Origin: an uncultured virus (IMG/VR IMGVR_UViG_3300031851_000010)
Taxonomy: Duplodnaviria > Heunggongvirae > Uroviricota > Caudoviricetes
DNA length: 64,000 nt
Reading direction: 5' to 3' (one strand)
Virus record (IMG/VR): IMGVR_UViG_3300031851_000010
The notes beneath the pieces were generated by a model. The model worked only from the letters and a program-made list of their open reading frames with translations, ran no database searches and was not told where the DNA came from. Each line of letters begins with the position of its first letter. Position 1 is the stretch's first letter. Of the stretch, positions 9,151 to 64,000 are shown piece after piece. The position numbers were made by a program, and so were the translations under genes.

Positions 9151-9161
9151 AAAATAATAAA

Positions 9162-13083: not shown

Positions 13084-13092
13084 TATAATCAC

Positions 13093-13695
13093 ATGTCAAA
13101 ACAAGAATTAAATAATACCCCTAAAGTCTTAGGGTTGGATATATCTACAAAAACTATTGGATGGGCACTATTTGATGAGGGTAGTCAAAAATTGTTAGAA
13201 TTAACACACTTTTCACCAGTCATAAAACCTAAACCTGAAGAAAAGATTGAAGAACTATTACTTAAGGTAGATGGTTTTAAAGAGAAAATAGAAGGATACA
13301 AAGATTTAAATATTGTTAAGGTGGTTATCGAAGAGCCACTTCTTAATTCTAATAATATATGGACCGTGGGAACACTATTAAGATATAATTCTATGATTTC
13401 AAGGGTAATCTACGAAGTTTTAGGTTTAGTACCTCGTTACATATCAACATATAATTCACGTAAGTTTGCATGGCCAGAATTAGTTAATGATAATGGAAAA
13501 GGTAAAAGAGTTTTATTTGGAGGTCTTCCCAAAACAATTGATAAGAAAGAAATTGTTTGGAAAAAAGTTGCGGAATCTGAACCGCAAATAGTGTGGTTAT
13601 ATACACGTAACAATACTTTAAAGAAAGAATGTTTTGACCAAGCAGATGCGTACACATGTGTCCAAGGTTATATGAAACAACAAGGTCTTTGGTAG
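13093..13695 (+). CDS. ruvC: RuvC-like Holliday junction resolvase
   Basis: VLGLDISTKTIGWA, VVIEEP and DQADAY acidic catalytic motifs. Confidence 0.7.
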   Translation: MSKQELNNTPKVLGLDISTKTIGWALFDEGSQKLLELTHFSPVIKPKPEEKIEELLLKVDGFKEKIEGYKDLNIVKVVIEEPLLNSNNIWTVGTLLRYNSMISRVIYEVLGLVPRYISTYNSRKFAWPELVNDNGKGKRVLFGGLPKTIDKKEIVWKKVAESEPQIVWLYTRNNTLKKECFDQADAYTCVQGYMKQQGLW

Positions 13696-13733
13696 TTGAT
13701 TTTGTAAATACTTTATTTTATATTTAGTCCTAT

Positions 13734-14663
13734 ATGGACAATCAAGATGAATTATTGGTAGTTGACTTATTAGTTAACATTTTTGGTGAGTCTCATTTAC
13801 ATAATGAAATGAGGGCTCAGATATCTTTTGACTGCCCTGTTTGTTCACACGACATTAAAGGTTCAGATAAAGGAGACGGTAAAGGTAATTTAGAAATAAA
13901 TTATGGTCAACACGTTTATAAATGTTGGGCCTGTTCTGAGACACATGGGACTCACGGTCATTTAGGTCGATTGATTGATAAATACGGTTCAAAGAAGGAT
14001 AAACAATTTTATACTTTAGTCAGGCCTGATGAGTTTATTAGGGACCAAAGAAAATATAAAACACTTAGATTACCTAAAGAATATCAAAAATTTAGTGATG
14101 TTAATCCTATATTTCCACCAAGAGCGCAAGCTTATAACTATTTAAAAAGAAGGGGTATAACTGATGAAATCATTAAAAAATACGATATTGGGTTTGCTAA
14201 CAGTGGTGATTATGCGGGACGTATAATAGTACCATCATTTAATGATGAAGGTTTATTAAATTACTTTGTTGCTCGTAGTTGGAATAAGTATTCTAAACTA
14301 AAGTATAAGAATCCTGAAGCACCCAAAGAGCTATTAATATTTAATGAAAGTAGAATAAATTGGGATGAAGATATATGGATAGTAGAAGGAGTATTTGATA
14401 GTTTTTTTGTTCCTAATTCTATACCACTACTTGGTAAATTTCTATCTGAAAAACTTTGGGAAACACTATACGATAAATCTAAAGGTAGAATTAAGATTTG
14501 TTTAGATGCGGACGCTTGGGAAGATGCTAAAGGACTTTACTATAAATTAAGTGGTGGAAAACTATATGGTAAAATAGATATAATAAAACTACCTGATAAT
14601 AAAGATTTAGGTGACTTACGGGGAGTTATTCCTGAAGGGAGTTATGTAAAATTAGAAAAATAA
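13734..14663 (+). CDS. dnaG: DnaG-like DNA primase (Zn finger + TOPRIM)
   Basis: CPVC...CWAC zinc site, YLKRRGI, IVEGVFD, LDAD, KDLGD. Confidence 0.8.
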   Translation: MDNQDELLVVDLLVNIFGESHLHNEMRAQISFDCPVCSHDIKGSDKGDGKGNLEINYGQHVYKCWACSETHGTHGHLGRLIDKYGSKKDKQFYTLVRPDEFIRDQRKYKTLRLPKEYQKFSDVNPIFPPRAQAYNYLKRRGITDEIIKKYDIGFANSGDYAGRIIVPSFNDEGLLNYFVARSWNKYSKLKYKNPEAPKELLIFNESRINWDEDIWIVEGVFDSFFVPNSIPLLGKFLSEKLWETLYDKSKGRIKICLDADAWEDAKGLYYKLSGGKLYGKIDIIKLPDNKDLGDLRGVIPEGSYVKLEK

Positions 14664-15520
14664 TGGAAAACTTAAAAACAATATCTCAAGAGATAAGAGA
14701 TATAATAGATAAAAAACAAAAAGAATTAGAATTATCATTTACTGAAGCCGAACATATATATTTTATGAAGGATAGGGATGGTATAGTAAGAAATAACTTT
14801 CCTTCAGTCTCTAAAATATTAAAACATTTCTATGAACCTTTTCCAGCTGAAGACATTGCTTATAAAAAGGCTAAGGGGGATAGAGTGGAGATGGAACGAT
14901 TATTAGATGAGTGGTCAGCCGCGGGTTCATATGCAACAAATATGGGGTCTCGAGCTCACTTCATACTAGAGAAGAAAACAATTGAACTATATGGTGATTA
15001 TAAAGAGGTACGTAAACCTATATTTGAATGTGATATTGAACAAGAACTAAGAAGTAACTCAATGATAAGTGCGGGTGAAAAATTCTTAAAATTAATGGAC
15101 GAAAGAGGGGCATACCTTTTAGATACTGAGATGGTTTTAGGTCACCCTGAATTAGGGTATACGGGTCAACCTGATAAAGTTTGGTTAATAATGAATAAGG
15201 AGAAAAACGGTTTTGGGTTAGTAATCACAGATTGGAAAACTAACAAAGAAAAGAATTTTAAAAAAACTCATTGGACAAAACCAATGAAATCACCATTTCA
15301 AGATTTACCTGACAACGCTTTAGGTCACTATCAACTACAATTACCATTCTACGGAAGGTTAATTTTAAAAATGTTGGAAGGAACAAAATATGAAAACATT
15401 TCACTTTTAGGGTGTGTTATCGTATTATTAAAAGGTGATAGTGAATTTGAAGAATTTAAAATACCTTCAAAAACAATAAATAAAGTTATGAATTTAAAAT
15501 TATCTGATTATGGTATATAA
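14663..15520 (+). CDS. PD-(D/E)XK exonuclease (RecB/Cas4-like fold)
   Basis: PSVSKIL, GSRAH, GQPD, DWKT and QLPFY motifs. Confidence 0.75.
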   Translation: MENLKTISQEIRDIIDKKQKELELSFTEAEHIYFMKDRDGIVRNNFPSVSKILKHFYEPFPAEDIAYKKAKGDRVEMERLLDEWSAAGSYATNMGSRAHFILEKKTIELYGDYKEVRKPIFECDIEQELRSNSMISAGEKFLKLMDERGAYLLDTEMVLGHPELGYTGQPDKVWLIMNKEKNGFGLVITDWKTNKEKNFKKTHWTKPMKSPFQDLPDNALGHYQLQLPFYGRLILKMLEGTKYENISLLGCVIVLLKGDSEFEEFKIPSKTINKVMNLKLSDYGI

Positions 15521-16121
15521 AGACCTATATCCTGACATGTTCGATGACAGTGACTTTGACTTATGGAAAAGTAGAAACATAAGAAAAGAATTTTTATCAT
15601 ATGAGTGGAATATGATGGTTCAGGAAGTCGCTCCTGATGTGTTTGAGTTTCCATTTTTTAATACGAAATTCTGTGATAATTTAGTGGATATTTTAAAAAC
15701 GATTAATTGGGACCAAGTAAATCGATGGGGTACGCCTGTTTTTTCAACAAACCTTAAAAAGTTTAATTTAGAAAAAATAATGACTCATTTAGTTCACGAT
15801 TACATTTTTAGTATAGTACAAAAAGAGTGGCATTTAGAGGGTAAAAAATGGAAACTATTACAACCCGATAATAATGTCTTGAAGTTACAAGAGGGTCAGG
15901 AAATTAGAATGCACCATGATGATGTACACATTTCAATGTACTGTAAATTAGATGATGAAAGTAAAGGTGGTGATTTAGTTTTTGAGAAATATGGAAAAAC
16001 TATAGTACCAAAACAGGGTTATATTTATATGTATCCTGGACAAATAACGCATAGATACGGTATGAAAAGAGTTGATAAAAATGATAGGTATTTTTTAATG
16101 ACATATTGTACAAGTGATTAG
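15510..16121 (+). CDS. 2OG-Fe(II) dioxygenase, PLOD lysyl-hydroxylase-like (diverged paralogue)
   Basis: APDVFEFPFF..KFCDNLV, HHD, GG, YPGQITH, RY; metal and 2OG ligands intact. Confidence 0.75.
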   Translation: MVYKDLYPDMFDDSDFDLWKSRNIRKEFLSYEWNMMVQEVAPDVFEFPFFNTKFCDNLVDILKTINWDQVNRWGTPVFSTNLKKFNLEKIMTHLVHDYIFSIVQKEWHLEGKKWKLLQPDNNVLKLQEGQEIRMHHDDVHISMYCKLDDESKGGDLVFEKYGKTIVPKQGYIYMYPGQITHRYGMKRVDKNDRYFLMTYCTSD

Positions 16122-16275
16122 AATATCTAATAATTTTTTAATGGTTCTTGGAATCATATTTTTTCTAATTGGTAGAGAAACGGGTGGGCAACTCCCATCA
16201 TTTATGTTTGGGTTATGTTTTGGTATGATATATCTAAATTATAAAAGAGATAAAAAAGAAAATAATGGAAGTTAA
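16114..16275 (+). CDS. Small putative membrane protein (53 aa, not in ORF track)
   Basis: GTG-start ORF MIRISNNFLMVLGIIFFLIGRETGGQLPSFMFGLCFGMIYLNYKR... fills the gap between the two oxygenases. Confidence 0.4.
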   Translation: MIRISNNFLMVLGIIFFLIGRETGGQLPSFMFGLCFGMIYLNYKRDKKENNGS

Positions 16276-16900
16276 ACATAGTAATTATATTCATCCTGAG
16301 TTGTATACATATGATGATAATCCAGCGGAGTGGGAACGTAGATTCTTAAAACCAGAACTAATGTCTGATAATTGGGAGTTATATGTTCATGAAGAATTAT
16401 TAAATATATATACTATTCCTGCATTTACGGATGAGTTTTGTGATTTTATTATGGAAGAGGCTGAGGCTTGTAATTGCTGGACTGTTGATAGACACGAAAG
16501 TTATCCAACAACCGATATGGTTTTAGGTACTATTGGTTTAGGTGATACATATCAAAAGGTATTAAAAAAATATATATGGCCATTAAGTTATAAGTTATTT
16601 AAATTAGAGGGTAATTCATGGTTAAATATGAGTAGTGAAAATTTCATAGCAAGATATCACCCATATGCTCAGTATCATTTATCACTACATCATGATGCGA
16701 GTCAGATAACAACCGTAGTGACATTAAACGAAGATTTTGAAGGTGGGGGAACGTACTTCCCAAATCAAAATTCTAAATTAAAAGGAAAGAAAGGTGACAT
16801 ATCAATTCATCCTGGTCAAATAACTCATTGGCATGGGGGATTACCTGTGGAAACAGGACAAAGGTATATTATCGTTTCATTTTGTTCAGTAAAAAGATAA
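16265..16900 (+). CDS. Stand-alone procollagen lysyl hydroxylase (PLOD LH-domain) homologue
   Basis: YPTTDM, FIARYHP, LHHDASQIT, DFEGGG, HPGQITHWHGGLPVETGQRYIIVSF track the PLOD C-terminal domain (VPTIDI, FVVRYKP, PHHDASTFT, YEGGG, HPGRLTHYHEGLP..GTRYI.VSF). Confidence 0.85.
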   Translation: MEVKHSNYIHPELYTYDDNPAEWERRFLKPELMSDNWELYVHEELLNIYTIPAFTDEFCDFIMEEAEACNCWTVDRHESYPTTDMVLGTIGLGDTYQKVLKKYIWPLSYKLFKLEGNSWLNMSSENFIARYHPYAQYHLSLHHDASQITTVVTLNEDFEGGGTYFPNQNSKLKGKKGDISIHPGQITHWHGGLPVETGQRYIIVSFCSVKR

Positions 16901-16903
16901 GAT

Positions 16904-17131
16904 ATGGATATAGGAAATAATAACCAAATGAGAGTAAATCCATTAGATTTACCTAATGTAGAATGTGAAAAATGTGAAAATATTTTTTATGATAAAGTTA
17001 CTATCATTAAAAAAGTTAGTAAATTACTAACGGGTTCAGCAACTGATGAATTAGTTCCGATGGAAACTTATGTTTGCACTGAATGTGCACATATAAATAA
17101 AGAATTTAATATATTAGGAAATGAAAAGTAG
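16904..17131 (+). CDS. Small zinc-ribbon protein
   Basis: CEKC...CTEC. Confidence 0.65.
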   Translation: MDIGNNNQMRVNPLDLPNVECEKCENIFYDKVTIIKKVSKLLTGSATDELVPMETYVCTECAHINKEFNILGNEK

Positions 17132-17354
17132 AGATTTTGTAATATGGATTGATGGATTCATACAGGGTAAAGTTAATTTAAGTGTTGATGATATTAGACA
17201 TATTAAAAATAAAGTTGAGGAAGTTGATTTAACTGAAAATACTGAGGTAATTATACGAAGGGAGGGTCCACCGACTCAACCAATAATCATACGGGAACCT
17301 AATCAAGATGATGATATGGATTTTCCCGGTAAACCACCTAATGTGTATATGTGA
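17121..17354 (+). CDS. Hypothetical protein
   Basis: 77 aa ORF in operon-like packing. Confidence 0.6.
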   Translation: MKSRDFVIWIDGFIQGKVNLSVDDIRHIKNKVEEVDLTENTEVIIRREGPPTQPIIIREPNQDDDMDFPGKPPNVYM

Positions 17355-17422
17355 TATGACAGATGAAAACGAATTTTATTTTTGGGATGAAATGTGGAAT
17401 GAAGAAAAAAATAATAAAAAAA

Positions 17423-17761
17423 ATGAGAAAAAAACTACAAAAAATAGCTTGGAAGACAAATCGATGGACAACAAAGATTAGTTTGCTTAATCTCTACTTA
17501 GGTGGTGATAATCATAAATTTGGGTTTCAAATACTTAATATTGATAAAGGGTTTGTATGGTCAGGGTCATTGTTTGAAGTTACATGGTATTTTCCAACAG
17601 TAACACATTCAGGTGAATTAACAGTTGATATTTTATTTTTATTCGAAAAGTGGGATAATTGGTGTATCGATATGACCGACAGAGTTATGTGGGGTTCAGG
17701 ACTTAGTCGATGGGAAAAAATAAATAGATTCATACATTCCAAATTTAAAAGTATAAGATGA
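17423..17761 (+). CDS. Hypothetical protein
   Basis: ORF 17363-17761; ATG 17423 after an A-rich leader is the likelier start; ATGA overlap with cysK. Confidence 0.5.
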   Translation: MRKKLQKIAWKTNRWTTKISLLNLYLGGDNHKFGFQILNIDKGFVWSGSLFEVTWYFPTVTHSGELTVDILFLFEKWDNWCIDMTDRVMWGSGLSRWEKINRFIHSKFKSIR

Positions 17762-18633
17762 AATTATCAGACAATGTAGGTGTTACGCCATTACTTAAGA
17801 TTAGTGATAAAATATATGCTAAGGTTGAGTTATTAAATCCAACGGGTTCTATCAAAGATAGACCTGCATCACACATTATTAATACAGCAGAAAAAAATGG
17901 AACCCTATTACCTGGTGGGACTATATGTGAAGCCACTTCTGGAAATATGGGTGTTAGCTTTGCTTGGTTAGCTGCGGAACGAGGGTATAAGTGTGTTATC
18001 ATTATGCCTAACAACATGTCAATGGAACGTAAGAAAACCCTAAAACTTTATGGTGCAGAACTTATTGAGGTGGATGCTGGTGCGTTTGATGACGCTATTG
18101 CACTTAGAGATGAAATGTGTGAAGTGAATGGTTGGTTTAATTGTGACCAATTTAATAACCCTTTAAATGTTGAATCACATAAAGAGGGAACTGCGGTTGA
18201 AATATTACATCAGTGTAGAAATATTTGTATAGAACCTAGTGCAATAATCAGTGGTACAGGTACAGGTGGTACACTAATGGGTGTCGGTCCAATGTTAAAA
18301 ATGTATTATCTTAATATGGATATAGTTGCTGTGGAACCTGAAGAGTCTCCTGTGATGAGTGGTGGTGAACCAGGTTTACACGGTATACAAGGGATAGGAG
18401 ATGGTTCAAAATTTTTAGTTGATTTGACTGTTGTTGATAAAATCATTACTATTAGTACTGAGGACGCAAAATTAAGGGCACGTAAGTTAGCTAAAGAACA
18501 CGGTATGTTTGTAGGTATTTCAGCGGGTTCCAATATATTAGCCGCAGAAAGATATGTTGAAAAATATAATCCTGATGGTCCTGTAATAACCTTCCTTTGT
18601 GATAGGGGAGATAGATATTTTAGTTGTTTATGA
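17758..18633 (+). CDS. cysK: Cysteine synthase (O-acetylserine sulfhydrylase)
   Basis: NPTGSIKDR PLP lysine, ATSGNMG, GTGTGGT, HGIQGIG, DRGDRY. Confidence 0.92.
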   Translation: MKLSDNVGVTPLLKISDKIYAKVELLNPTGSIKDRPASHIINTAEKNGTLLPGGTICEATSGNMGVSFAWLAAERGYKCVIIMPNNMSMERKKTLKLYGAELIEVDAGAFDDAIALRDEMCEVNGWFNCDQFNNPLNVESHKEGTAVEILHQCRNICIEPSAIISGTGTGGTLMGVGPMLKMYYLNMDIVAVEPEESPVMSGGEPGLHGIQGIGDGSKFLVDLTVVDKIITISTEDAKLRARKLAKEHGMFVGISAGSNILAAERYVEKYNPDGPVITFLCDRGDRYFSCL

Positions 18634-19412
18634 TAAAAAATATAGTACATTTTTCAGACCTACATTTGAGGTTATTTAAAGACCACGATTTATATAAGCG
18701 TATTATAACTGATATGTTAAATAAATTTAAAGATATAAAGCCTGACCGAATTGTTTTTACGGGTGATTTGGTTCATAGTAAAAATCAAATGACACCTGAA
18801 CTTATTGAAGTTGTAGCTTGGATACTTACAGAATGTAGTAAAATATCTAAAACAGTACTTATTCCTGGTAATCATGACTTTTTAAATAATAATCTTAATA
18901 GATTAGACGCATTAACACCTATTATAGATTCACTTAAAAACCCTGAAATTGTGTACTATAGAGACCGAGGGATTTATGAGGACGATAATATAAGTTGGTG
19001 TGTATATTCTCAATTTCAAGGTAATATACCACCTGAAATATCGAATGCTAAAGGATATAAAGTGGGATTGTTTCATGACCCAATACAGGGATTAGTTACT
19101 GATACTGGTTACGGTTTTGGGGACCATGCTTACGATATAAAAAAATTTAAAGGTTTAGATGTGTTATTATGTGGAGATATTCATAAAAGACAAGTAATTG
19201 ATATACCTAATAATAAAAAAGCATATATGGTCGGTTCGACTATTCAACAGAACTTTGGAGAGAGTATAACTAAACATGGGTTTGGTATTTATAGTGTAGA
19301 TGAAGATACTTATGAGTTTGTTGATTTAACTAATCCTCGACCATTTTTATCTTTTAAAATAACAAATATTGAAGATTTAGAGAAAGGACATGAGCAACTC
19401 ACCAATTATTAG
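18630..19412 (+). CDS. sbcD: SbcD/Mre11/gp47-like metallophosphoesterase nuclease
   Basis: SDLH, TGD, GNHD and GDIHK motifs; SbcC partner downstream. Confidence 0.8.
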   Translation: MIKNIVHFSDLHLRLFKDHDLYKRIITDMLNKFKDIKPDRIVFTGDLVHSKNQMTPELIEVVAWILTECSKISKTVLIPGNHDFLNNNLNRLDALTPIIDSLKNPEIVYYRDRGIYEDDNISWCVYSQFQGNIPPEISNAKGYKVGLFHDPIQGLVTDTGYGFGDHAYDIKKFKGLDVLLCGDIHKRQVIDIPNNKKAYMVGSTIQQNFGESITKHGFGIYSVDEDTYEFVDLTNPRPFLSFKITNIEDLEKGHEQLTNY

Positions 19413-20223
19413 TCTTACCACAAAAGAGATAAAGGATATTAAAAGTTTCTGTAAACTAAACGAATTAGATTTTGAGAAGTTTATTAAGATATGTTTTAGT
19501 AAAGGATATCAGATTGAAAAATATGGTTTACTAACAACTGATGATGGTGAACAAATTGTATTTGAAGAGAAAATAATTGAAAAAGAGGTTATAAAGGAAG
19601 TACCTATCGAGGTTGAAAAAATTATTGAAAAAGTAGTAATTAAAGAAATACCTGTAGAAAAAATAGTTGAAAAACAAATAACTGTAGAAGTTATAAAAGA
19701 AGTACCTTTTGAAGTTATTAAAGAGGTAGAAAAGGAAGTAATTGTTGAGGTTGAGAAAATTGTAGAAGTTGAAAAACCTAAAGAAGTAATAGTTGAAAAA
19801 GAGGTATACATTACCGATGATGAACAAGTTAAAGAACTTGGTAGTAAAATTACTAAGTTGGAGGGGGTGAATAAAGAGTTATCTCAAGAGATTTCTAAGA
19901 AAGATGAAAGTTTAGATGAACTTAGACAAACTTTAGATATTGAATTAAACAAACCACCTACAGAAGTTGAGAAGGTTATTGAAGTTATTAAAGAGGTAAT
20001 AGTTGAAAAACCTATTGAAGTCATCAAAGAGGTTAAAGTAGTTAATAAAGATAAATTGTTATTACTACAGGAAACCATATCAAAGATGAAAGATGAGATA
20101 AGAAAAAAAGATGAAAAGATTTTACAAATTGAGAATAATGTTGTAGAATTAGAAAAAATAAAAGGACCAATAAAGGGTAAATTTATGGGTTCTACAAATT
20201 TAAACGATAATATATATAAGTAA
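19390..20223 (+). CDS. Val/Glu/Lys/Ile repeat protein (EVIKEVPVEK), coiled-coil C-terminus
   Basis: Repeats visible in translation. Confidence 0.7.
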   Translation: MSNSPIISLTTKEIKDIKSFCKLNELDFEKFIKICFSKGYQIEKYGLLTTDDGEQIVFEEKIIEKEVIKEVPIEVEKIIEKVVIKEIPVEKIVEKQITVEVIKEVPFEVIKEVEKEVIVEVEKIVEVEKPKEVIVEKEVYITDDEQVKELGSKITKLEGVNKELSQEISKKDESLDELRQTLDIELNKPPTEVEKVIEVIKEVIVEKPIEVIKEVKVVNKDKLLLLQETISKMKDEIRKKDEKILQIENNVVELEKIKGPIKGKFMGSTNLNDNIYK

Positions 20224-21379: not shown

Positions 21380-21407
21380 ATTAATAAATAGATAAATAAT
21401 TAAAATT

Positions 21408-21620: not shown

Positions 21621-21627
21621 AGTTAAA

Positions 21628-43722: not shown

Positions 43723-45153
43723 GTGTATTTTAGAGATAATAATTATAGTGATGGTATTGACAAATTTATGGTCATTACTGTTGCTACAGAAGAAAACGAA
43801 GAATTAGTCCGTTTTAGGGAGTCTTGTCATCATCATGATATACCATATAAAATTTTAGGGTTAGGTCAAGAATGGACAGGTGGTGAAGCCAAAAATGGGG
43901 TCCTACTTAAACCAGGTGGTTCACAAAAAATAAATTTACTTAAAGAGGAGTTATCGGATTATCCTGATTTAGGTAATCATATTATACTTTTTACTGACTC
44001 ATATGATGTTATTATTAATGGTTCATCAGAAGAGATAGTTAGTAGGTTTAGAAAGATGGAATCACCTATAGTATTCTCAGCTGAAAAAACATGTTGGCCA
44101 GATGAAAGTTTAAAAGAGAGATACCCAAAATCTCCTACCAACTATAGGTATTTAAATTCAGGTGGTTTTATTGGTTACGGTGACCACATATCAAAATTAG
44201 TTAATAAAGTTTCGGTTAATAATGAATACGATGACCAGTTATATTATACTGAAAGGTTTTTTGAGGACCTAAAAGGTAATAAAGACACTATATTAGATTA
44301 TAACCAATTCTTATTTCAAACGATGAATGAATCTTTAGAAGATATTATTGTTGAGGGAGGTAATCTTAAAAATACTGTAACTAATGAGTCACCACTTATA
44401 ATTCATGCGAATGGTGGTAGTGTAGTAAAGAATACTTTAAATGATTACTATGAAAAAATATTTGATAAAAGGGTTATAAAATCTTTCACTCCTAATAATG
44501 ATAAAATCAAAAAATATACGAATGAATCTGATATATTAATTGGTTTATTTTTAGATGAGAAAGTGTCAGATATTAATCAAACTTTTGACCACATCAGGTT
44601 TTTGAATTACCCAAAAGATAAGACTTCATTTCACATAATTTATGGGGATAGTAAACATGATTACAAAGTTAATATGTTCAAAGAAAAGTATTCTGATATA
44701 TTTAAAAGTTTTAAAATAACACGTACCAATAGTAATAAAATTATATCAAGAAAGAATTTTCTTATTGAATCCTATGACGAGGCTGACTATGTCATTATGA
44801 TGGAGTCTAACCATATATTTAGAAATATTAAATCTATTCAACTACTAATTAATGAATGTAAGGGAATTATCGGACCAATGATTAATAAGGAGGGTAGTGA
44901 ATGGGTTAATTTTGAATCTAAAAATAAAAAAGATTATCAAAAATATATTAAGAAGGGTATTTGGGATGTTGATACAATATATGGTATTCATATAATAAAA
45001 AATGATTTAATACCATTTAGTGTTAGTTCGCTTTACATGGATAGTAAAAATTATAGTTACGATGATTGGGATATATTAATGTGTGATAACCTAAATAAAC
45101 AAGGTTATCAAATACAAATATCGAATACTAATTACTACGGAGGAATAATTTAA
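43723..45153 (+). CDS. PLOD/LH3-type collagen hydroxylysine glycosyltransferase (GT + accessory domain)
   Basis: VITVAT, LGLGQEWTGG, GGSQKI, FTDSYDV, FSAEKTCWPD, YLNSGGFIG, DDQLYYT, IHANG, then LNYPKDK accessory domain; colinear with the PLOD N-terminus. Confidence 0.85.
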   Translation: MYFRDNNYSDGIDKFMVITVATEENEELVRFRESCHHHDIPYKILGLGQEWTGGEAKNGVLLKPGGSQKINLLKEELSDYPDLGNHIILFTDSYDVIINGSSEEIVSRFRKMESPIVFSAEKTCWPDESLKERYPKSPTNYRYLNSGGFIGYGDHISKLVNKVSVNNEYDDQLYYTERFFEDLKGNKDTILDYNQFLFQTMNESLEDIIVEGGNLKNTVTNESPLIIHANGGSVVKNTLNDYYEKIFDKRVIKSFTPNNDKIKKYTNESDILIGLFLDEKVSDINQTFDHIRFLNYPKDKTSFHIIYGDSKHDYKVNMFKEKYSDIFKSFKITRTNSNKIISRKNFLIESYDEADYVIMMESNHIFRNIKSIQLLINECKGIIGPMINKEGSEWVNFESKNKKDYQKYIKKGIWDVDTIYGIHIIKNDLIPFSVSSLYMDSKNYSYDDWDILMCDNLNKQGYQIQISNTNYYGGII

Positions 45154-53529: not shown

Positions 53530-56500
53530 ATGGCTAAAAACATTATAATAGTACCACAACCAACAGGTACGACACTTCCTTATATTATTTTTGAGAACAC
53601 TAATGGTGATACTATTTCATTAAATGTTCACAATGACGGTCGTCTAACTTTTTCAGGTGCAACACATGGTGATGCTTTAGTTGTTATTGATGAAGATAGG
53701 TTAAATGTTAAAGGTTCTATTATCTTAGGTAATGACGTAGCATTTAATAGTGTTGGTTCTATTACGGACACTGGTGGTTGGAAAGGTAGTACTCAAGGAC
53801 TAAAAGGTAATCATGGTGTTGACGGTGATAAAGGTTTAAAAGGTGTACAGGGACCTGTAGGGCCAACAGCTAATAGAGGTACAAGTGTTGATGGACCACA
53901 AGGTGATAAAGGTAGAAAAGGGTTAAAAGGTCTCAAAGGTAGATTTGGTACTATAGGTACTAGTTGGGCGTTCCAAAATGATGGTGATAAAGGTTTAAAA
54001 GGACCACAAGGTCCAACATCCACTGAAGTGGGTCCGAAAGGTGAAAAAGGTAATCGTGGAGTTCAGGGTGAAGAGGGTATTAAAGGTGCTATTGGAGATA
54101 AAGCCAGTCAAGGACCTGTAGGTTTACAAGGTTCAAATTCAGATAAAGGTATTGTTGGTGATAAAGGTAATAAGGGTTTAAAAGGACCACAAGGACCTAA
54201 AGGTGTCAAAGGTATTGAAGGTGAAAAAGGTAAAAAAGGTTCTTTAGGACCACAAGGACCAGTTTCACAATCGGGTTCATCTGCGGATAAAGGACTTAAA
54301 GGACTTAAAGGTCTTCAAGGAACAAAAGGTCCGAAAGGTATTCAAGGTACTCAGGGATTACAAGGACCAATAGCAAGTGTTGGTTCACAAGGACCCATAG
54401 GACCTAAAGGTCCAACAGGAGAAAAAGGTATAAAAGGGCTGATAGGTGTTAAAGGTCTTAAGGGTGTGAAAGGTCTTAAGGGTGTGAAGGGACATAAAGG
54501 ACTTATTGCTGTAAGTGGTGATAATGGTCAACAAGGTCCAACGGGGGCTCAAGGACCAATAGGTTATAAAGGGGACAAGGGACTTAAAGGTCTTCAAGGA
54601 ACAAAAGGTCCGAAAGGTATTAAAGGACCACAAGCCAGTACAACTACACAAGGACCACAAGGACCACAAGGATTACAAGGAATCACTTCAACAGATAAGG
54701 GTATTAAGGGTCAAAAAGGGTTAAAAGGTGTAAAGGGTTTAAAAGGTTTAAAACCTAATAGAGGTACTCAAGGAGGTATCGGTACACAAGCATCACAAGG
54801 ACCTACTGGACCAACAGGACCTAAAGGTGATGATAAAGGTCAGAAAGGTCTAAAAGGTATTAAAGGTCTAAAAGGTAATAGAGGACCACAAGGACCTCAA
54901 GGTGCGATTGGTAATCAAGGTAGTATAGCCTCGACAGGTGACAAAGGTATAAAGGGTGTAGTTGGACCAACACCATTCAAAGGACTTAAAGGTCTTAAGG
55001 GTAATAAAGGTTTAAAAGGACCTAAAAATTCACAAGGTCCACAAGGTCCAACAGGTAATCAGGCGTCTATAGGTGATAAAGGTAATCGAGGTGCTACTTC
55101 AACCGATAAGGGTCTTAAGGGACCTAAAGGTTTAAAGGGTATTGAAGGACCTAAAGGACCTATTGGGTTACAAGGTCCACAATCAAGTACAGGAACTGTA
55201 GGGGAACAGGGACCACAGGGTGACCAAGGACCACAAGGTCCAACTTCAACTGATAAAGGTATAAAAGGACAAAAAGGTTTAAAGGGTTTAACTGGTGGAC
55301 GTGGACCACAAGGAAGTGATGGTGTAAGAGGAGGTAAAGGACCGCAAGGGCCAACAGGTAACAGAGGTAATATTGGTGTATCATCCGACAAAGGTAATAG
55401 AGGTCCACAGTCTGAGGAAAAAGGACTTAAGGGTCCTCAAGGCGATAGAGGTTCACAATCTACTGATAAGGGTCAAAAAGGTCCACAAGGAAGTAGAGGG
55501 AGTCAAGCCGCACAAGGACCAACAGGACCGGCAAGTACCGATAGAGGTCCGGTTGGTAATAGAGGACAACAAGGAAAACAATCTACTGATAAAGGTCAAA
55601 AAGGTCCACAGGGACCACAGGGGGACCAAGCCGCTGCAGGACCAACGGGTCCACAAGGTCCAACCAATGACACTAAAGGTCATAAAGGGTTAAAGGGTTT
55701 AAAAGGAGTTAAAGGTAATAGAGGTAGTCAAGGTCCAAGAGGACCACAAGGAGCAACATCAACCGTAAAGGGGTATAAAGGTATAACCAGTACTACTAAA
55801 GGTATTAAAGGACAGAAAGGTTATAAAGGACCTAAAGGGCCAAGAGGTTCTGTTGGTAATAGAGGGGCACAAGGTGCGACATCAATAGTAAAAGGGGCGA
55901 AAGGACCAAATAATTCTGAAAAAGGGCTAAAAGGACTAAAAGGTTTAAAAGGGCCAAAGGGTAATAGAGGTAACCAAGGACCACAAGGTGTTAGAGGAGC
56001 CAATTCAACGGTTAAAGGGTTTAAAGGGATAGATAATACAACTAAAGGTCCAAAAGGTTTAAAAGGAGTTAAAGGTAATCGAGGAAATCAGGGGTCGCAA
56101 GGACCGCAAGGACCAAGAGGTTCAGCTTCAACTACACAAGGACCAAAAGGTCCAACTAATAATACTAAAGGTCAAAAAGGTGCAGTTGGTGATTCAGGAA
56201 TAAAAGGTGATAAAGGTATACGAGGACCGCAAGGACCAAGAGGAAATGATTCAACAGTAAAAGGATTAAAAGGACAGCCAAGTACTGAAAAAGGTTTAAA
56301 GGGACTTAAAGGGCCAAAAGGGCCGAAGGGTAATAGAGGTAATCAAGGACCTCAAGGGTCAAGAGGAAATGATTCAACAGTAAAAGGACCAATAGGACCG
56401 TCAAGTTCAGAAAGGGGTCTACAGGGTGTTAAAGGATTAAAAGGGCGAAAAGGGCCAAAGGGACGTAAAGGTATTAAGGGACCACAAGGTTCTCAATCTA

Positions 56501-57507
56501 CAGATAAAGGTCAAAAAGGTTTTATAGGTACAGATAAAGGTCTTAAAGGTCTACAAGGTAGTAAAGGACCTAAAGGAAATAGAGGACCACAAGGCTCACA
56601 AGGACCAAGAGGTCTACAATCTACAGATAAAGGTATAAAAGGTTATAAAGGACCAAGAGGTTCAAATGGACCAACAGGTCCAGGTGGGTCAAATGGGTCA
56701 GGTGGTCCAACAGGGCCAACAGGTGGTGGAGGTTCAAATGGACCAACGGGACCACAAGGACCAGCAGGTACTGAAAAAGGGTTAAAGGGTCTTAAAGGAC
56801 TAAAAGGCCCTATTGAAAAACAAGGTAGTCAAGGACCAATAGGTCCGCAAGGTAATACTTCAACAGTAAAAGGACCAACAGGGCCAATTGGTAATGACCT
56901 TGGACCAACAGGTCCAACAGGACCACAAGGTCCGGCAAGTACGGATAAAGGTCCGATAGGACCAAAAGGACCAACATCAACAGTAAAGGGGGTAAAAGGA
57001 CTAAGAGGGCCAATTGGTAGTACGGGACCAAGAGGAGGACAAGGAACAAGTGGACCACAGGGACCGACAGGACCACAAGGACCGGCTGGTAGTGGTGGTG
57101 CGACAGGGCCAACTGGTGGACAAGGACCTAAAGGTCCAAAAGGACCAAGAGGTTTACAAGGACCACAGGGACTACAAGGTCCAGCATCAGATAAAAGATT
57201 AAAAAATAATATTAAATCTTTAAAAGGTAATCTAAGTAAGTTAAAATTAATTGACGGTGTAAAGTTTACATGGAAAGGTGGGTCAACTAAATTTGAAAAT
57301 AATTATGGTGAAGATTTTGGATTTATCGCTCAAGATATTGAAAAAGTTATACCTGAAGTTGTATTTAATAGTGAGAGTGGTTATCTAAAACTTGAGTACG
57401 GTAAATTAGTTGCGATTGGTATAGGTTCTATACAAGAACAAAACACACGTATTGAAAATATAACAGATAGAATTAACATATTAAAATCAAAAATTTTAAA
57501 TGGGTAG
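53530..57507 (+). CDS. Collagen-like fibre protein with C-terminal peptidase S74 chaperone
   Basis: Long interrupted Gly-X-Y (GLK, GPQ, GDK); SDKRLKNNI...GFIAQDIE...YGKLV. Confidence 0.9.
55759..56619 (+). repeat. Seven tandem 41-aa (123-nt) collagen super-repeats
   Basis: Units begin STVK/SIVK/STVK/STTQ/STVK/STVK/STDK; 41 aa each by manual count. Confidence 0.85.
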
Positions 57508-60500
57508 AGACATTAAAATAAATCCAACGGGTGGGACAATCAGTTTTTCAGGTACTAATAGTACTATGATTAATATTGACTATAATAGTGGTGAATTAAA
57601 TTTCAACACCCACTTAGGTAATGATTTTAAAATTACTTCAAACTTAGAGTTAGATAATATAAAGTTTATGCCGTCTGTTTCAGTAAAGAAAGAGAATAGT
57701 AACGAACTAATTGATGACTTAGGTAAGTGGAAGGGTTACCCTATGAATATGATTGGACCGACTGGTACACAAGGTCCAAATGGACCTACAGGTCTTAAGG
57801 GTAGTAGAGCGGTTGATGGAGAAAAAGGTTTAAAAGGTAAAAAAGGTTTAAAAGGTATAACTTCTACTGAACAAGGTCCACAGGGTGACCAAGGTACTAA
57901 GGGGTTAAAAGGTATCAAAGGAGAAAAGGCTAACCAAGGACCTATAGGGCCAACAGGTGTCAAAGGTCAAATAGGTCCTCAGGGTAATACAGGACCAATA
58001 GGTCCGACATCTTTAAAAGGTCCAGTAGGACCACAAGGGTTTAAAGGTTTCAAAGGTAATAAAGGTATAAAGGGATTAATTGGTGACTCACTGAAAGGTC
58101 CTACAGGATTATCGGCGAGTAAAGGTAACCAAGGACCCACAGGTACTAATAAAGGACCAATTGGTCCAAAAGGTGAGGTAGGTGTAAAAGGACCTCAAGG
58201 ACCAATTGGGATTACTGCAAATGTAGATGTTTATGTTTTCTATGACGCGACATCAATGCCAAGTGATAAAGCTAAAGAAGCTTCGCAGAGTGTTAGAGAT
58301 TGGTTCCAAACGGTAAATGGTGATGGTGATATTAATAAACTATACGAGGGGGTAATTGGTAAAAATTCTCATAATGGTGAAAACTGGTTATGGTGGGCAT
58401 CTTACCCATATCTTGGTTCACTATCCGGAGGTACCTTATCTGATAACACACAAATTAATGAATTTAATAGTGCTGTACCTAATGCAACTTATCAATCTGA
58501 TTATTGTAAGTCTAACTCAGGTGGTAATTGTGTACCAAGAAACTCACAATTTAATGATGGTGAAACGATATATAGAAGAATTAACAGAGGTGTTAATTTA
58601 GATACAGGTGCCGCTGAAACAATATCTCAGGGTGTACCTTTTGACCATAGTGATTTAAATAATACGGAAACATCGGGACAAGGTTCATTTGGTGGTGATA
58701 ATACTAACTATTTGGTAATTATTGTTGCTGATGAGTCAGATGGTCTTGTTGGTTTATATCATGGACAGGTAGGTGGGACTAATAGTAATCCAACTAAGAG
58801 TGATTTGTATAATAAACCATTTGAATTAAATGGTAATTATTGGAATAATAATGCGGGTGATGAATATACGAATAGGTATTTACACGATTACTGTTCTTAT
58901 GTTCAAGTATATGAAGATATTATATCCAATAGAGGGGGTAATGCTCAAGGTTTAGTTTATCCAGTTGTAAACCCACTTAGAGGTACTTCAACTTATGCGT
59001 TTGTTCAACATGCAGTAGCAGCAATTGAGGGTAGTACCATCACTAGTAATGAGTTTTTAAACAGATATGGTGATAACATAACTTCAGTTGGTCCTGAAAA
59101 CTTAAATTTAAGTGCATTAACAAGAACAAATGTATATTCAGGTTTAACGTCTGAAACTTGTTATACAAATTTAGAAAGTAGTTTTAAAAATGGTTCAGGA
59201 CTAAAACATTTTGGATTTGATGTTGACCCTACTGTTAGTAATTTTACGGAATCCGTTGTTACAAACGCTTTAACGTCTTTTCTAAGACAACAAGGTGAAA
59301 CTGGTGACGAAGGTAATAAAGGAATCGCTGGTGACGATAAAGGAACTAAAGGATTAAAAGGATTAAAAGGATTAAAAGGTTTAAAAGGGGCTAAAGGACC
59401 TGATACCGATAGTGGAACAAAAGGTGTGGTAGGTGAAAAGGGACCTATCGGTGTTGATGGACCTGTTGGTGATTTAAAAGGTCCAAAAGGTGAAGTTGGA
59501 GTTGTTGGACCAAAAGGTATTAAAGGACCTGATGGTTCCATAGGTGTTTCACCCAAAGGTCAAATAGGTCCTGATGGTGACCAAGGACCTACAGGTGGTA
59601 GAGGTGAAACTTCTACCGATAAAGGTGAAAAAGGTATTAAAGGTAGAAGAGGTAATAAAGGTCTTAAAGGTATTAAAGGTGTCAAAGGTCTAATAGCTAG
59701 CCAAGGAGATACGGGACCAACAGGTCCTCAATCCGATAAAGGTCTGACCGGTAATAAAGGTGATAAAGGTCTCAAAGGTTTAAAAGGTCGAAAAGGATTA
59801 CTTGGTCCACAAGGACCACAAGGAGCAATTGCTGACCAAGGAGCTCAAGGTCCAGTTTCACAAGATGGTGAGGGAGCGGATAAAGGTCTTAAAGGACTTA
59901 AAGGATTAAAAGGGTTAAAAGGTAAAAAGGGTATTGATGGGACAAAAGGACCTCAAGGGCCAACAAGCCAAGGTAATGAGTTAGGACCTACAGGGGAAAA
60001 GGGTCAAAGAGGACCACAGGGAGATAAAGGTAATAAAGGTTATAAAGGATTAAAAGGTAAGAAAGGTGTTAAGGGACCTAAAGGACCTAAAGGTTTAATC
60101 GCGAGTCAAGGTGATGGAGGACCACAAGGACCAACGGGACCAGTGGCGGACCAAGGTAATAAAGGACTTAAAGGATTAAAAGGTAATAAAGGTTTTAAAG
60201 GGTTAAAAGGTTTAATAGGGCCTCAAGGAAATAAAGGACTTAAAGCCAGTCAAGGTGATGCGGGCCCACAAGGTCCTGAAAGTATCAAAGGGCAAAAGGG
60301 TTATAAAGGTATCAAAGGTCAAAAAGGTTATAAAGGACCACAAGGTAATAAAGGACCTAAAGGTTTAAAAGGGTTAAAAGGTGTTACTGGTGATAAAGGT
60401 TTAATAAGTGTATCTGCAGGTGACAAAGGAATTAAAGGTCAAAAAGGTTTTAGAGCCACTGATGGTGATAAAGGTATAAAAGGTCAAAAAGGTTATAAAG

Positions 60501-62821
60501 GTCCAGATGGTAGTAGAGGTACTACTTCAACAGTTAAAGGTCTTAAGGGTCAAAAAGGTCTCAAAGGATTAAGAGCAACTGATGGAGTAAAAGGTAGTAA
60601 AGGATTAATAGGTATTAAGGGACCAAGAGGACCACAGGGTGGAAGAGGAACAACAACAGGTACTGGTGGAGAACAAGGACCACAAGGTCCAACAGGTCCG
60701 GCAGCATTTAAAGGACTAAAAGGAATAAAAGGTTATAAAGGACCTAAAGGACCTAAAGGGCCGAAAGGAACACAAAGTACATCTCAAGGACCTACAGGAC
60801 CTGGAGGAGATAATGGACCAACAGCCTATAAAGGACTTAAAGGTCAAAAAGGTATTAAAGGGGCTTATGGACCAAAAGGTCCAATAGGTTCAGCGACAGG
60901 AGATGGTGGACCTCAAGGTCCAACAGGGGATAATGGACCGACAGCATTCAAAGGGTTAAAAGGGTTAAAAGGACATAAAGGGTATAAAGGACCTAAGGGA
61001 CCACAAGGACCATCAACTGCCGATGGAGGACCACAAGGTCCAACAGGTCCGGCAGCATTTAAAGGTATTAAAGGTAAAAAAGGGACTAAAGGACCTAAAG
61101 GATATAAGGGACCTTTAGGACCACAAGGAGCGACAACAGGTGTTGCTGGTGATAAAGGACCACGAGGTCCTCAAGGACAGACAGGACCGACAGCATTCAA
61201 AGGATTAAAAGGTACAAAAGGTTTAATAGGACCTAAAGGACCGACAGGAAATCAAGGAACACAAAGTGGTCCAACAGGTCCAACAGGTGCAGGTGGACCC
61301 GCAGCATTCAAAGGGTTAAAAGGGTTAAAAGGACATAAAGGGTATAAAGGACCTTTAGGACCACAAGGAACTGGTAGTTCAGTTAAAGGTTATAAAGGAG
61401 AAAGAGGGCCAAATGGACCGACCGCTCAAAATGGTGATACAGGTCCAACAGGACTAAAAGGACCAAAAGGTCCACAAGGACCGACAGGTCCTCAAAGTAC
61501 TTCAAAAGGACCAAAAGGTGCTGTAGGTATTGGAGGTCCAGCCGCTTTCAAAGGACTAAAAGGTATTACAGGTGAGAAAGGTTTAAAGGGTCAGTTAGGA
61601 CCTACAGGGCCAGCAAATAGTGATAAAGGTACTCGTGGTCCACAAGGAACAACTAATACAACTAAAGGACCAAAAGGACCAAAAGGTCCACAAGGTGGTA
61701 GAGGTCCACAAGGTGGTAGAGGACTAATAGGTACCCAAAGCACATCTCAAGGACCGACAGGACCAATAGGACCATTAGGACCAAAAGGTTTAAAAGGACA
61801 TAAAGGAATTAAAGGTTACAAGGGCCCAAGAGGACCTCAAGGGTCGAAAGGGTCACAATCATCTAAAACAGGACCAAGAGGACCACAAGGTCCGAGAGGT
61901 AATGCTTCTACAGATAAGGGTCAAACAGGTATCGCTGGAAATCCCGGACCACAAGGACCAACAGGACCAAAAGGTTATAAAGGTTATAAAGGACCTAAAG
62001 GGTATAAAGGTCGACAAGGTGGTAGTGGTCCACAAGGTCTTCAAGGTCCACAAGGACCAAGAGGCCCACAAGGGTCAGATGGACCAGCAGCGTTATCTGG
62101 ACCAACAGGACCAAAAGGTTTAAAAGGTAATAAAGGTATAAAAGGACCCACAGGTGGTGCGTTTTGTTTCGCTCATGACATTGCGGTAAGAGCAGGTGAA
62201 GATTGTGCGTATTGTAATGGTAGAAGTAGCCCATGTGGAGATAAGGTAAATTTGACTGTATATAAAGGTGATATACAACCATTAGCTCAGGGTGATATCC
62301 TCTATACTGACCCAGATTGTAAAGATTGTAGAGAATTTGAGGGATTACCATGTATGAGAAATCTATCTACAGATTTTATAACTATATGGGACGCGGTCAA
62401 CTTAGGTGGAGTTTTATTTTCATGGGTAATTACACCACCACCTAAATCAGTAGTAAATGCTTGTGAAATATATGCTTGTGCCGATTGTAGGGCTTCTGAT
62501 AGTAGACTTAAACATGGTACTAAAACATTAAGTGACTCTTTGAATAAGTTACTAAAAATTAATGTTACGGAATATGATTGGAATGAAAATTATACAGGAT
62601 ATGACTTCTTAAAGGAAAGACAAAAATTACATTCAATTGGTATGATAGCACAAGAAATAAACTTATTATATCCTGAAGTAGTTTATAGAAGGGATGATGG
62701 TTATTTAGCTATTAAGTATTATAAATTAAATGCATTAATTATTGAAGCGATTAAAAGTCAACAAGTATTTATTGAAGACATAGAGGAACAAATAAACTGG
62801 TTAAGAACACAAATAGATTAA
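57500..62821 (+). CDS. Collagen-like fibre protein with internal vWA-like domain, Cys-rich tip and S74 chaperone
   Basis: Gly-X-Y tracts flanking a 361-aa globular insert; SDSRLK...GMIAQEI...YYKLN. Confidence 0.9.
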
Positions 62822-64000
62822 TGGCTAATATTATAATATATCCTACGGGAAGTACATTAAACACCAATCCACATATAATTTTTAGTGGTACAGGTGTTGA
62901 TTATACTATTGAAATAGATACTACAGGTGATTTAGTATTTAAGTCTTCTACAAATATTTTTAAAATATCTGATAGTGCTACTCCATTATCATTACCAGGT
63001 GAGGTTAATGTTATTAATAGTGAACTTTATGTTGGTAGTATGATGGTAGTTGACTCTGGAGGTCATTGGGTTGGGCAGACAGAAGGTCTTAAAGGTCAAA
63101 AAGGTCTCAAAGGACTACAAGGTGTTGACGGTGATAAAGGTTTAAAAGGTAATAAAGGTATTCAGGGAATCGTTGGACCTACAGGTGATAAAGGTGACTT
63201 CGGTATCAAAGGTGGTATTGGTTCTGACGGAGAAAAAGGAATCAAAGGTGAGCTTTCAGTCAAAGGGGATAAAGGTAACCGAGGACCACAAGGTGAGAAA
63301 GGTATTGTTGGACCTAAAGGGTTAAAAGGGTTAAAGCCGTCAGACTCAACAAAAGGTCTTAAAGGACCAACAGGTCTAAAAGGGTTAACATCTTCAGATA
63401 AAGGAACTAAAGGTCCGACAGGTCTTAAAGGTGTTAAAGGAAATAAGGGTCTAAAACCTGAACAAGGACCAAAAGGTAGTATAGGTGGTGATTCACCTCA
63501 AGGGCCAACAGGTTTAAAAGGGCCGACATCATCAGATAAAGGTCAAAAAGGACCAAAAGGTATAAAAGGTGTAAAGGGACAAAAAGGTATTCTTGGAAAT
63601 CAAGGTCCACAAGGTGATAAAGGTGTTAGGTCGACAGATGGGGATAATGGACCACAAGGACCAACAGGACCTACCGCTGATAAAGGACCTATTGGTAACA
63701 AAGGTATAAAAGGTCTTACAGGACCACAAGGTCCGCAAGGTCCTGATGGTATTGTAGGTGTACAAGGACCTGATGGTGATTTAGGACCAAGAGGTCCACA
63801 ATCTACAGACAAAGGTGATAAAGGTATCAAGGGTATTAAAGGTATCAAGGGTATTAAAGGACCTAAACAAGGTAGAGGTGTAATAGGTACACAAGGTGAA
63901 AAAGGATTTATCGGACCACAAGGTCCAACAGGTCCAGGTGGACCAGCAGCCGTTAAAGGACCAATAGGTCCACAAGGACCGACAGGACCAAAAGGATTTG
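62821..64000 (+). CDS. Third collagen-like fibre protein, 3'-truncated (not in ORF track)
   Basis: ATG in TAATG overlap; [23 protein letters not shown]...[19 protein letters not shown]; open to window end. Confidence 0.88.
   Translation, partial: MANIIIYPTGSTLNTNPHIIFSGTGVDYTIEIDTTGDLVFKSSTNIFKISDSATPLSLPGEVNVINSELYVGSMMVVDSGGHWVGQTEGLKGQKGLKGLQGVDGDKGLKGNKGIQGIVGPTGDKGDFGIKGGIGSDGEKGIKGELSVKGDKGNRGPQGEKGIVGPKGLKGLKPSDSTKGLKGPTGLKGLTSSDKGTKGPTGLKGVKGNKGLKPEQGPKGSIGGDSPQGPTGLKGPTSSDKGQKGPKGIKGVKGQKGILGNQGPQGDKGVRSTDGDNGPQGPTGPTADKGPIGNKGIKGLTGPQGPQGPDGIVGVQGPDGDLGPRGPQSTDKGDKGIKGIKGIKGIKGPKQGRGVIGTQGEKGFIGPQGPTGPGGPAAVKGPIGPQGPTGPKGF

Follow-up and report, generated by a model that had tools for sequence, protein, structure and literature searches.

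Here, we describe a tandem pair of genes, LHa and LHb, in a 64,000-nucleotide stretch of DNA (hereafter, the window) from the uncultured virus IMGVR_UViG_3300031851_000010 (IMG/VR; Caudoviricetes). Both genes encode stand-alone proteins related to the lysyl hydroxylase (LH) domain of PLOD enzymes, and a small open reading frame (ORF) with membrane-protein character lies between them (Table 1). The original prediction, made from the sequence alone, gave the coordinates of all three ORFs exactly, recognized that the pair is inserted among replication genes, and held that LHa is a paralogue of LHb. Indeed, the two proteins are 25% identical over 200 residues (BLASTP E 3e-26) and have in common the predicted motif PGQITH. 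As set out below, we suggest that they belong to a split PLOD system whose targets are the collagen-like fibres of the phage itself, with LHb as the enzyme and LHa as its non-catalytic partner.

The tandem LHa and LHb genes

Residues 7-207 of LHb match the full LH domain of human LH3 (E 2.7e-29), the closeness to PLOD that had been predicted, and LHb also matches the LH domain of mimivirus L230 (E 5.6e-23). The matching region includes the LH-specific N-terminal helices (PF25238-like region), and two Pfam families are recognized above their cut-offs (PF25238, 32.9 bits against 31; PF13640, 29.2 bits against 27). The AlphaFold2 (AF2) model of LHb has a predicted local distance difference test score (pLDDT) of 88.4. 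As given in the active-site descriptions of PMC6082870, LH3 binds iron through His667, Asp669 and His719, 2-oxoglutarate (2OG) through Tyr656, Cys691 and Arg729, and a second metal through His595, Asp597, Asp611 and His613 (chain numbering of LH3 in our alignments is the residue number minus 23). By alignment, the iron triad of LHb is complete (His142, Asp144, His190), and Tyr131 and Arg200 correspond to Tyr656 and Arg729. These five residues, together with His77 and Asp84, which align to LH3 His595 and Asp611, are each present in 50 of 50 distinct LHb-type sequences. The position of Cys691, counted on the alignment, is occupied by Thr163, which is nearly invariant (set A1). The capping loop is nine residues shorter than that of LH3, and because of this deletion the equivalents of Asp597 and Arg599 are missing; with Val86 at the position of His613 as well, LHb retains only part of the second metal site, which is a regulatory and not a catalytic feature. 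The residue at the dimerization knob (LH3 Leu715) is Ile186. Compared with three relatives, LHb has a ratio of nonsynonymous to synonymous substitution rates (dN/dS) of 0.05-0.07.

LHa matches LH3 (E 3.6e-7) and L230 (E 7e-4) in sequence, and its AF2 model (pLDDT 87.8) has LH3 as its best Foldseek match (TM-score for the query [TMq] 0.82) with L230 at 0.77; ranks 1-12 are all LH3 or L230 chains (TMq 0.75-0.82), and other 2OG oxygenases follow well behind. Its active site is degenerate. The original prediction had credited both proteins with the iron triad and the 2OG-binding Arg, which is correct for LHb and, in LHa, extends to His135, Asp137 and Arg193, but the distal iron ligand (LH3 His719, LHb His190) is replaced by Tyr183, leaving the LHa triad incomplete. 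The His of the shared PGQITH motif aligns instead to LH3 His717, a residue absent from the ligand list of PMC6082870. LHa also lacks the R-H-E...P-T-x-D segment of the capping loop that LHb and LH3 have in common, in agreement with the predicted divergence of its substrate-loop region, and it has no second metal site.

These replacements recur across orthologues. Residues were counted in ORFs of 150-300 aa that passed a PG..TH motif filter, with identical sequences collapsed, for LHa and LHb alike, and very aberrant copies would escape the counts because of that filter. Among the 63 distinct LHa sequences, position 183 is Tyr in 62 and His in one; the proximal ligand position (His135 in the window) is His in 58 and Arg in five; and Arg193 (LH3 Arg729) is Arg in 45, Lys in seven and another residue in 11. 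The equivalent of the 2OG-binding Tyr656, Leu126 in the window, is Leu (33), Phe (15), Met (14) or Ile (1) and never Tyr. The dimerization knob, by contrast with these losses, is kept: Ile179 (LH3 Leu715, L230 Leu873) is Ile in 57 sequences and Val in six. The single His at position 183 belongs to a near-identical relative (L076:3483-4094), in which the codon TAC has become CAT through two base changes.

The dN/dS of LHa is 0.06-0.10 relative to three relatives, against 0.01-0.07 for the primase and exonuclease genes; LHa is under purifying selection and is not decaying. It evolves faster than LHb: in six IMG/VR relatives LHa is 100, 98, 84, 72, 35 and 36% identical to the window, compared with 100, 96, 88, 87, 73 and 73% for LHb, and LHb exceeds LHa in identity to the window at 64 of 67 paired metagenome loci (medians 71% vs 45%).

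LHa and LHb are conserved as a module. When metagenomes were scanned with aligned distant LHa relatives, 80 loci were recovered, two of which (L106, L107) were rejected as LHa-clade loci, each being a single LHb-type gene. In 67 of the remaining 78, a complete LHb-type gene lies directly 3' of LHa. In the other 11 the sequence ends first; of six of these that were blasted, four (L043, L047, L062, L087) contain the start of LHb, whereas the remaining two (L040, L102) stop within LHa. No LHa-clade gene with downstream sequence was found without LHb (67 of 67 assessable loci are paired), and the tandem order is identical in 6/6 IMG/VR loci. In the A3 scan of viral contigs, every LHa-clade locus lay on one of the six known contigs.

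The exonuclease gene precedes LHa in 6/6 IMG/VR loci and likewise in the metagenome loci that were blasted. In the window, consecutive genes overlap: the exonuclease gene runs 11 nucleotides (nt) into LHa, LHa 8 nt into the small ORF, and the small ORF 11 nt into LHb, so that the four form one translationally coupled block. The small ORF itself is a variable, lineage-specific and non-obligatory insert. LHa and LHb overlap or abut in 20 of the 67 pairs, are 6-200 bp apart in 41 and more than 200 bp apart in six; 33 of the 41 have an intervening hydrophobic ORF of 47-60 aa, and two membrane-like ORFs separate the genes in the six widely spaced pairs. In four close relatives the small ORF is 74-100% identical to that of the window, with a dN/dS of ~0.2 that indicates some constraint, and its comparison with the ORF at the same position in locus L008 detected no similarity (E 2.3), which makes the two positional analogues at best. 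Being absent in 20 of 67 pairs, it was dropped as a component of any mechanism.

In a quick maximum-likelihood tree of 56 chosen rows, the LHa sequences are monophyletic (support 100), with a long stem (1.46). This clade sits weakly (88) beside the LH domains of long PLOD-like proteins and not beside the LHb clade, and thus gives no support for LHa as a recent tandem duplicate of LHb. LHa originated either by an old tandem duplication followed by acceleration or by separate capture; the backbone of the tree is too weak to decide between them.

Table 1. Positions in the window of the LHa/LHb pair, its flanking genes and the other components of the proposed system (aa, amino acids; GT/AC, glycosyltransferase and accessory domains).
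Feature	Position	Strand	Remarks
RuvC-like, DnaG-type primase, exonuclease	5' flank of LHa/LHb pair		
Exonuclease	14663..15520	+	phrog_298, E 2.2e-21
LHa, LH-fold paralogue with degenerate active site, 203 aa	15510..16121	+	
53-aa ORF, two hydrophobic segments	16114..16275	+	Between LHa and LHb
LHb, stand-alone PLOD-type LH domain, 211 aa	16265..16900	+	
75-aa ORF, two CxxC pairs, zinc-ribbon-like	16904..17131	+	Conserved downstream neighbour
75-aa CxxC protein, cysteine-synthase-like gene, SbcD, SbcC	3' flank of LHa/LHb pair		
PLOD-type GT/AC, separate gene	43723..45153	+	PF25342, E 1.7e-73, 247 bits (cut-off 27)
Collagen-like fibre protein, 1325 aa, C-terminal Peptidase_S74	53530..57507	+	PF01391, E 1.5e-97; PF13884, E 4.4e-14
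Collagen-like fibre protein, 1773 aa, central non-collagen domain, C-terminal Peptidase_S74	57500..62821	+	PF01391, E 7.4e-105; PF13884, E 1.9e-9
Third collagen-like fibre gene, extends past window end	62821..63999	+	PF01391, E 2.6e-35

Collagen-like fibre proteins and a PLOD-type glycosyltransferase

Three genes near the end of the window encode giant collagen-like proteins, and both complete ones end in the Peptidase_S74 chaperone domain typical of phage fibres. Counting Gly-X-Y triplets in runs of at least three, there are 292 in the protein starting at 53530, 306 in that starting at 57500 and 84 in that starting at 62821, the longest run being 42 residues. Lys occupies the Y position in 109, 137 and 39 of these triplets, respectively (37-46%; ~285 residues in total), and the X position in two, four and none. 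X-Lys-Gly is the context in which LH enzymes hydroxylate their substrates. These three proteins are therefore likely LH substrates as judged from their sequences, and the original prediction's suggestion of G-x-K peptides fits the window, where Lys is found almost only at Y. The proposed hydroxylation of Lys in X-Lys-Gly by LHb thus draws on genomic context, namely the Lys-rich Y positions of the co-encoded collagens.

The window also contains a GT/AC gene, which the original prediction did not mention. Its product matches both the GT and the AC domains of LH3 (chain positions 14-492, E 6e-58) and the full length of mimivirus R699 (positions 11-456, E 6e-43), and its AC domain follows its GT domain. 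By alignment, Asp92, Tyr94, Asp95, His228 and Trp51 correspond to LH3 Asp112, Tyr114, Asp115, His253 and Trp75, which the relevant passages of PMC6082870 describe as the Mn-binding DxxD and His and the UDP-stacking Trp and Tyr; the predicted Mn and UDP residues are thus retained. A GT/AC gene and multiple giant collagen genes are present in 5/5 related records. In the 297-kb relative, the GT/AC homologue (G002:C1:52734-54587, minus strand) matches in two pieces within a 629-aa frame, apparently because ~130 aa are inserted between GT and AC. NCBIfam provides a naming family for none of LHa, LHb and GT/AC.

Other genes touch on the modification of the fibres. The 562-aa neighbour of GT/AC (45195-46883) has no match in PDB and yielded only PcfJ-like leads, and no sign of a second collagen glycosyltransferase was found when it was examined. 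Two genes for NAD-dependent sugar-nucleotide dehydratases/epimerases (24000-24905 and 26913-27794), both with dTDP-glucose 4,6-dehydratase as their best match and below the curated cut-off, might supply an unusual sugar for fibre glycosylation. Outside the window, at ~92.3-93.0 kb of the nearest record (G001; L003:1354-1983, minus strand), lies a gene for a third 2OG oxygenase of 209 aa, which has H-x-D, a later His and a Lys in a spacing like that of prolyl 4-hydroxylases and adjoins a gene for an RmlD-like reductase; this enzyme may hydroxylate Pro in the collagens, whose X positions are Pro-rich. Additional PF13640 matches are found in the related records G002 and G003.

The roles of LHa and LHb

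LH domains are known to form dimers. In the LH3 dimer, the knob residue Leu715 enters a pocket formed by Phe639, Tyr642, Thr672 and Phe673 (dimer description in PMC6082870), and the L230 LH domain dimerizes through Leu873, which is inserted in an aromatic pocket of the other subunit; according to the account of L230 in PMC5802723, the dimer is required for activity on collagen and not for activity on a short peptide. The L230 dimer forms a cleft beside its two active sites (dimer sections of PMC5802723 and PMC6082870).

Modelled as a complex, LHa and LHb scored 0.68, 0.73 and 0.67 in three runs (median 0.68), whereas the best of three controls scored 0.00; that mark is reached by 116 of 157 solved complexes and by two of 215 mismatched pairs. 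The runs share at least 90% of their contacts, and the partner has a pLDDT of at least 86. LHa Ile179, at the centre of the interface, contacts LHb Phe112, Leu114, Gln147, Ile148 and Pro183, and LHb Ile186 contacts LHa Trp107 and Pro176, so that the modelled interface has the knob-into-pocket mode of LH3 and L230. With the catalytic positions removed, the LHa interface is conserved above random expectation, since only 78 of 10000 random position sets are as low in entropy. On this modelling, the heterodimer foreseen by the original prediction is plausible.

From sequence, predicted structure and genomic context, we infer that the phage modifies its own collagen fibres by means of a split PLOD system, a reading to which we assign a probability of roughly 0.55. 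LHb would be an active Fe(II)/2OG-dependent lysyl hydroxylase, converting the Y-position Lys of Gly-X-Lys in the phage's collagen-like fibres to hydroxylysine before the chains trimerize, and the GT/AC protein would then add sugar to the hydroxylysine made by LHb. In LHa, the LH fold and the knob Ile179 are kept, whereas the distal iron ligand and the 2OG-binding Tyr are gone, and its proposed role is that of a subunit without catalysis. LHa and LHb would meet at the two-fold knob-into-pocket interface known from the LH3 and L230 homodimers, and LHa would help to form a collagen-binding cleft beside a single active site. The pattern of residues in LHa fits such a partner better than it fits a second hydroxylase, and a non-catalytic subunit is the most likely role of LHa.

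Several observations weigh against this proposal. The complex model does not separate LHa-LHb from LHb-LHb or LHa-LHa, and its high score may reflect likeness only, because a similar homodimer has already been solved. The interface of LHb is not conserved above background (1622 of 10000 random sets are as low in entropy). LHb would be regulated differently from LH3, given the change of Cys691 to Thr163 and the shortened capping loop. The pair is surrounded by replication genes and stands ~37 kb away from the collagen genes, which bears on its timing relative to the fibres. Among 50,697 phage records, none comes from a close cultured relative. On the supporting side, four RNA-library runs, from four studies, contain contigs that cover LHa/LHb at 99% identity or more, and single contigs span LHa, the small ORF and LHb (X2, 15427-17131; X1, 15710-16663; X4, 15967-17089); they are compatible with expression and are no proof of transcription. 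(Short parts of the exonuclease gene are uncovered in three of the four runs, and we conclude nothing from these gaps.)

The remaining contrary observations concern the active site of LHa. His136, Asp137 and His181 are invariant in 63/63 orthologues, an HxD motif is present in 58/63, and Arg or Lys stands at the 2OG position in 52/63; the His183 of L076, the sole exception among the 63 to the absence of a His at that position, shows the canonical ligand in one relative. Together with Tyr183, the near-invariant His136, Asp137 and His181 could mark a non-canonical metal site instead of a dead one. This leads to the main rival explanation, which we consider unlikely: LHa would be an active oxygenase that binds metal through His135 and Asp137 with His181 or Tyr183 and has a specificity of its own, and the pair would be two enzymes. 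Its targets might be Lys in another context or the Thr-Pro-Thr repeats of the huge protein encoded at 3-7127, and the strong purifying selection on LHa would be expected of an enzyme too. However, in LH3 and L230 the distal His serves without exception as a ligand, and activity is abolished when it is lost (PMC6082870 and PMC5802723). The 2OG-binding Tyr is lost in 63/63 orthologues, the proximal His in five and the basic residue at the 2OG site in 11, and LHa never occurs without LHb where the sequence permits a check. With these losses, the suggestion in the original prediction that two intact enzymes differ in specificity is not supported.

Rather less probable again is the explanation that LHa works independently of LHb, as a monomeric or homodimeric chaperone or 'reader' that binds collagen chains and keeps nascent chains unfolded or marks sites. 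The LH fold, the degenerate active site and the purifying selection would all be accounted for, and the knob and pocket needed for self-association are kept. Against it stand the linkage with LHb in all assessable loci, with stop and start codons often overlapping, and the heterodimer model that passes its controls, neither of which is decisive on independent action. Finally, it is improbable that the pair modifies a host protein or another phage protein during replication (a translation factor or DNA-associated protein) instead of phage collagens: the genes do lie inside the exonuclease/primase/SbcCD block and are translationally coupled to the exonuclease, and small 2OG oxygenases do modify translation factors (Pseudomonas P4H-EF-Tu is among the weaker fold matches), but collagen lysyl hydroxylases are the best matches by both sequence and fold, well ahead of other 2OG oxygenases, and the window's Y-position Lys and PLOD GT/AC accompany the pair, all three components being found in 5/5 relatives.

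The proposed split PLOD system also has a broader form, which we put forward only tentatively and regard as rather doubtful: that a widespread marine jumbo-phage lineage builds virion fibres of collagen with sugar-bearing hydroxylysine and that LHb and the pseudo-hydroxylase LHa form an obligate asymmetric dimer through the ancestral homodimer interface.

Genomic setting, related systems and significance

The window belongs to the genome of an uncultured marine jumbo phage, ~300 kb in size. It has a G+C content of ~30%, nearly all of its genes are on the plus strand, and its phage markers include sigma-70, DnaJ, an N-acetylmuramoyl-L-alanine amidase, a Dam-type methylase, DnaG primase, SbcCD and many PHROG families. 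The nearest record, G001 (94.6 kb, completeness rating 32%), was used as a stand-in for the window's own phage. The genome size is taken from the 297-kb relative, which is rated 99% complete, and genes of the toolkit were seen on contigs of up to 304 kb in the metagenome scan. In the phage collection, megablast of window positions 13000-24000 returned zero matches, LHa has zero matches at E 1e-5 among the 50,697 records, and SbcC has matches at 21-25% identity only, the top three being uncultured huge phages.

Next to the pair, the 75-aa CxxC ORF is conserved (65-100%) in 6/6 IMG/VR loci, with a dN/dS of 0.02-0.13. Further genes of the window encode a cysteine-synthase-like pyridoxal phosphate enzyme (17758-18633), a full DnaJ (39436-40386), a GlnII-type glutamine synthetase (48667-49803), a thioredoxin (50173-50493) and a NodU-like carbamoyltransferase (50494-52251). 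A 277-aa protein (19390-20223, plus strand) consists mostly of short repeats rich in Glu, Val, Ile and Lys (EVIKEV-like) and matches no family. Among the few minus-strand ORFs of at least 100 aa with family matches are a 141-aa CorA-like C-terminal fragment (20775-21200; PF01544, E 2.6e-22) and a 306-aa ORF with weak EF-hand matches (29171-30091). A weak SprB-repeat match at 9141-10793, just under the cut-off, is a mere hint as to the host. The giant frame at 3-7127 (plus strand; at least 2374 aa, extending past the window start; no Pfam match) has ~1000 residues of Thr-Pro-Thr-[Leu/Asn] repeats set between Cys-rich modules, and the gene for this repeat protein accounts for the strongly negative GC skew at 2001-4000. 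Possibly O-glycosylated, its product could be a surface protein of the mucin type.

The CRTAP-P3H1 complex (8k0m, a weak fold match) is similar to the proposed pair in that a non-catalytic relative or partner accompanies an active collagen hydroxylase. CRTAP, however, is similar to the N-terminal, non-catalytic region of P3H1 and not to the oxygenase domain, whereas LHa is itself a degenerate oxygenase domain and is predicted to use the homodimer interface. Relative to LH3 (PLOD3; 6fxk), LHb keeps His667, Asp669, His719, Tyr656, Arg729, His595 and Asp611, and the knob Leu715 as Ile. Unlike LH3, the phage LH domains are stand-alone proteins of 203-211 aa that are not fused to GT/AC; LHb lacks Asp597 and Arg599 and has Thr for Cys691, and LHa lacks His719, Tyr656 and the second metal site. 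The closest system is that of mimivirus, with L230 (LH and GT), R699 (GT/AC only) and viral collagens, which likewise combines collagen, LH and GT in a virus. It differs in that the phage has a bacterial host (as indicated by sigma-70, DnaG primase and the amidase), that its LH proteins are not fused to a GT, and that it has an extra, conserved and degenerate LH paralogue in tandem, of which no counterpart was found in the available descriptions of mimivirus.

Both LHa and LHb match phrog_61, the family of cyanophage and roseophage genes annotated '2OG-Fe(II) oxygenase' (S-PRM1, S-CAM9, CRP-6). Each of these is a single gene in which GT and LH adjoin or are fused, at ~27-32% identity, and no tandem catalytic/degenerate LH pair was seen in the cyanophage and roseophage records. 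Adjacent or overlapping PLOD-GT-like and LH-like matches occur in S-PRM1 (130608-131780), S-CAM9 (~35058-36233) and CRP-6 (33053-34270), in genes annotated 'hypothetical protein' that look like a compact GT-LH fusion lacking an AC domain; in ACG-2014f cyanophages, an LH-like match is annotated 'ferrochelatase'. Since GT-like and LH-like matches adjoin or overlap in S-PRM1 and S-CAM9, PLOD-like genes do occur in cultured marine phages. Near LHa is an Atlas cluster with the automatic name 'procollagen-lysine 5-dioxygenase family protein', 48% of whose members are viral. Given this name and the cyanophage and roseophage annotations, the homology of phage proteins to PLOD is already visible in databases.

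Hydroxylation of collagen Lys with subsequent glycosylation is considered characteristic of animals, with mimivirus sharing it. In the openly accessible article texts searched on lysyl hydroxylase, procollagen-lysine or hydroxylysine in phages, we found no account of such a system, neither of a jumbo phage that combines giant G-X-K collagens with a split PLOD architecture nor of a strictly conserved catalytic/degenerate LH pair. The available parts of PMC2938197, PMC12220804 and PMC8968730 deal with phage collagens and bacterial collagen hydroxylation in general and leave this system unmentioned. A 2022 review describes prokaryotic collagens as mostly devoid of hydroxylation and glycosylation and phage collagens as tiny (relevant sections of PMC8968730). 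The lineage described here is an abundant one of uncultured phages that has the whole toolkit beside collagen-like proteins of more than 1000 residues.

The reason why LH domains dimerize is relevant to the design of LH2 inhibitors (discussion of dimerization in PMC5802723), and the catalytic/degenerate pair represents a natural experiment on the need for an LH dimer in the modification of long collagen. If the proposal is true, LHa and LHb would be a natural LH dimer with one active site and would show what dimerization contributes to collagen recognition. Small and soluble, LHb could also serve the production of hydroxylated recombinant collagen in bacteria. Like animals and mimivirus, the phage probably modifies collagen that it makes itself. 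Such a pathway of collagen Lys hydroxylation and glycosylation would be the first in a virus of bacteria and would bear on the origin of animal PLOD.

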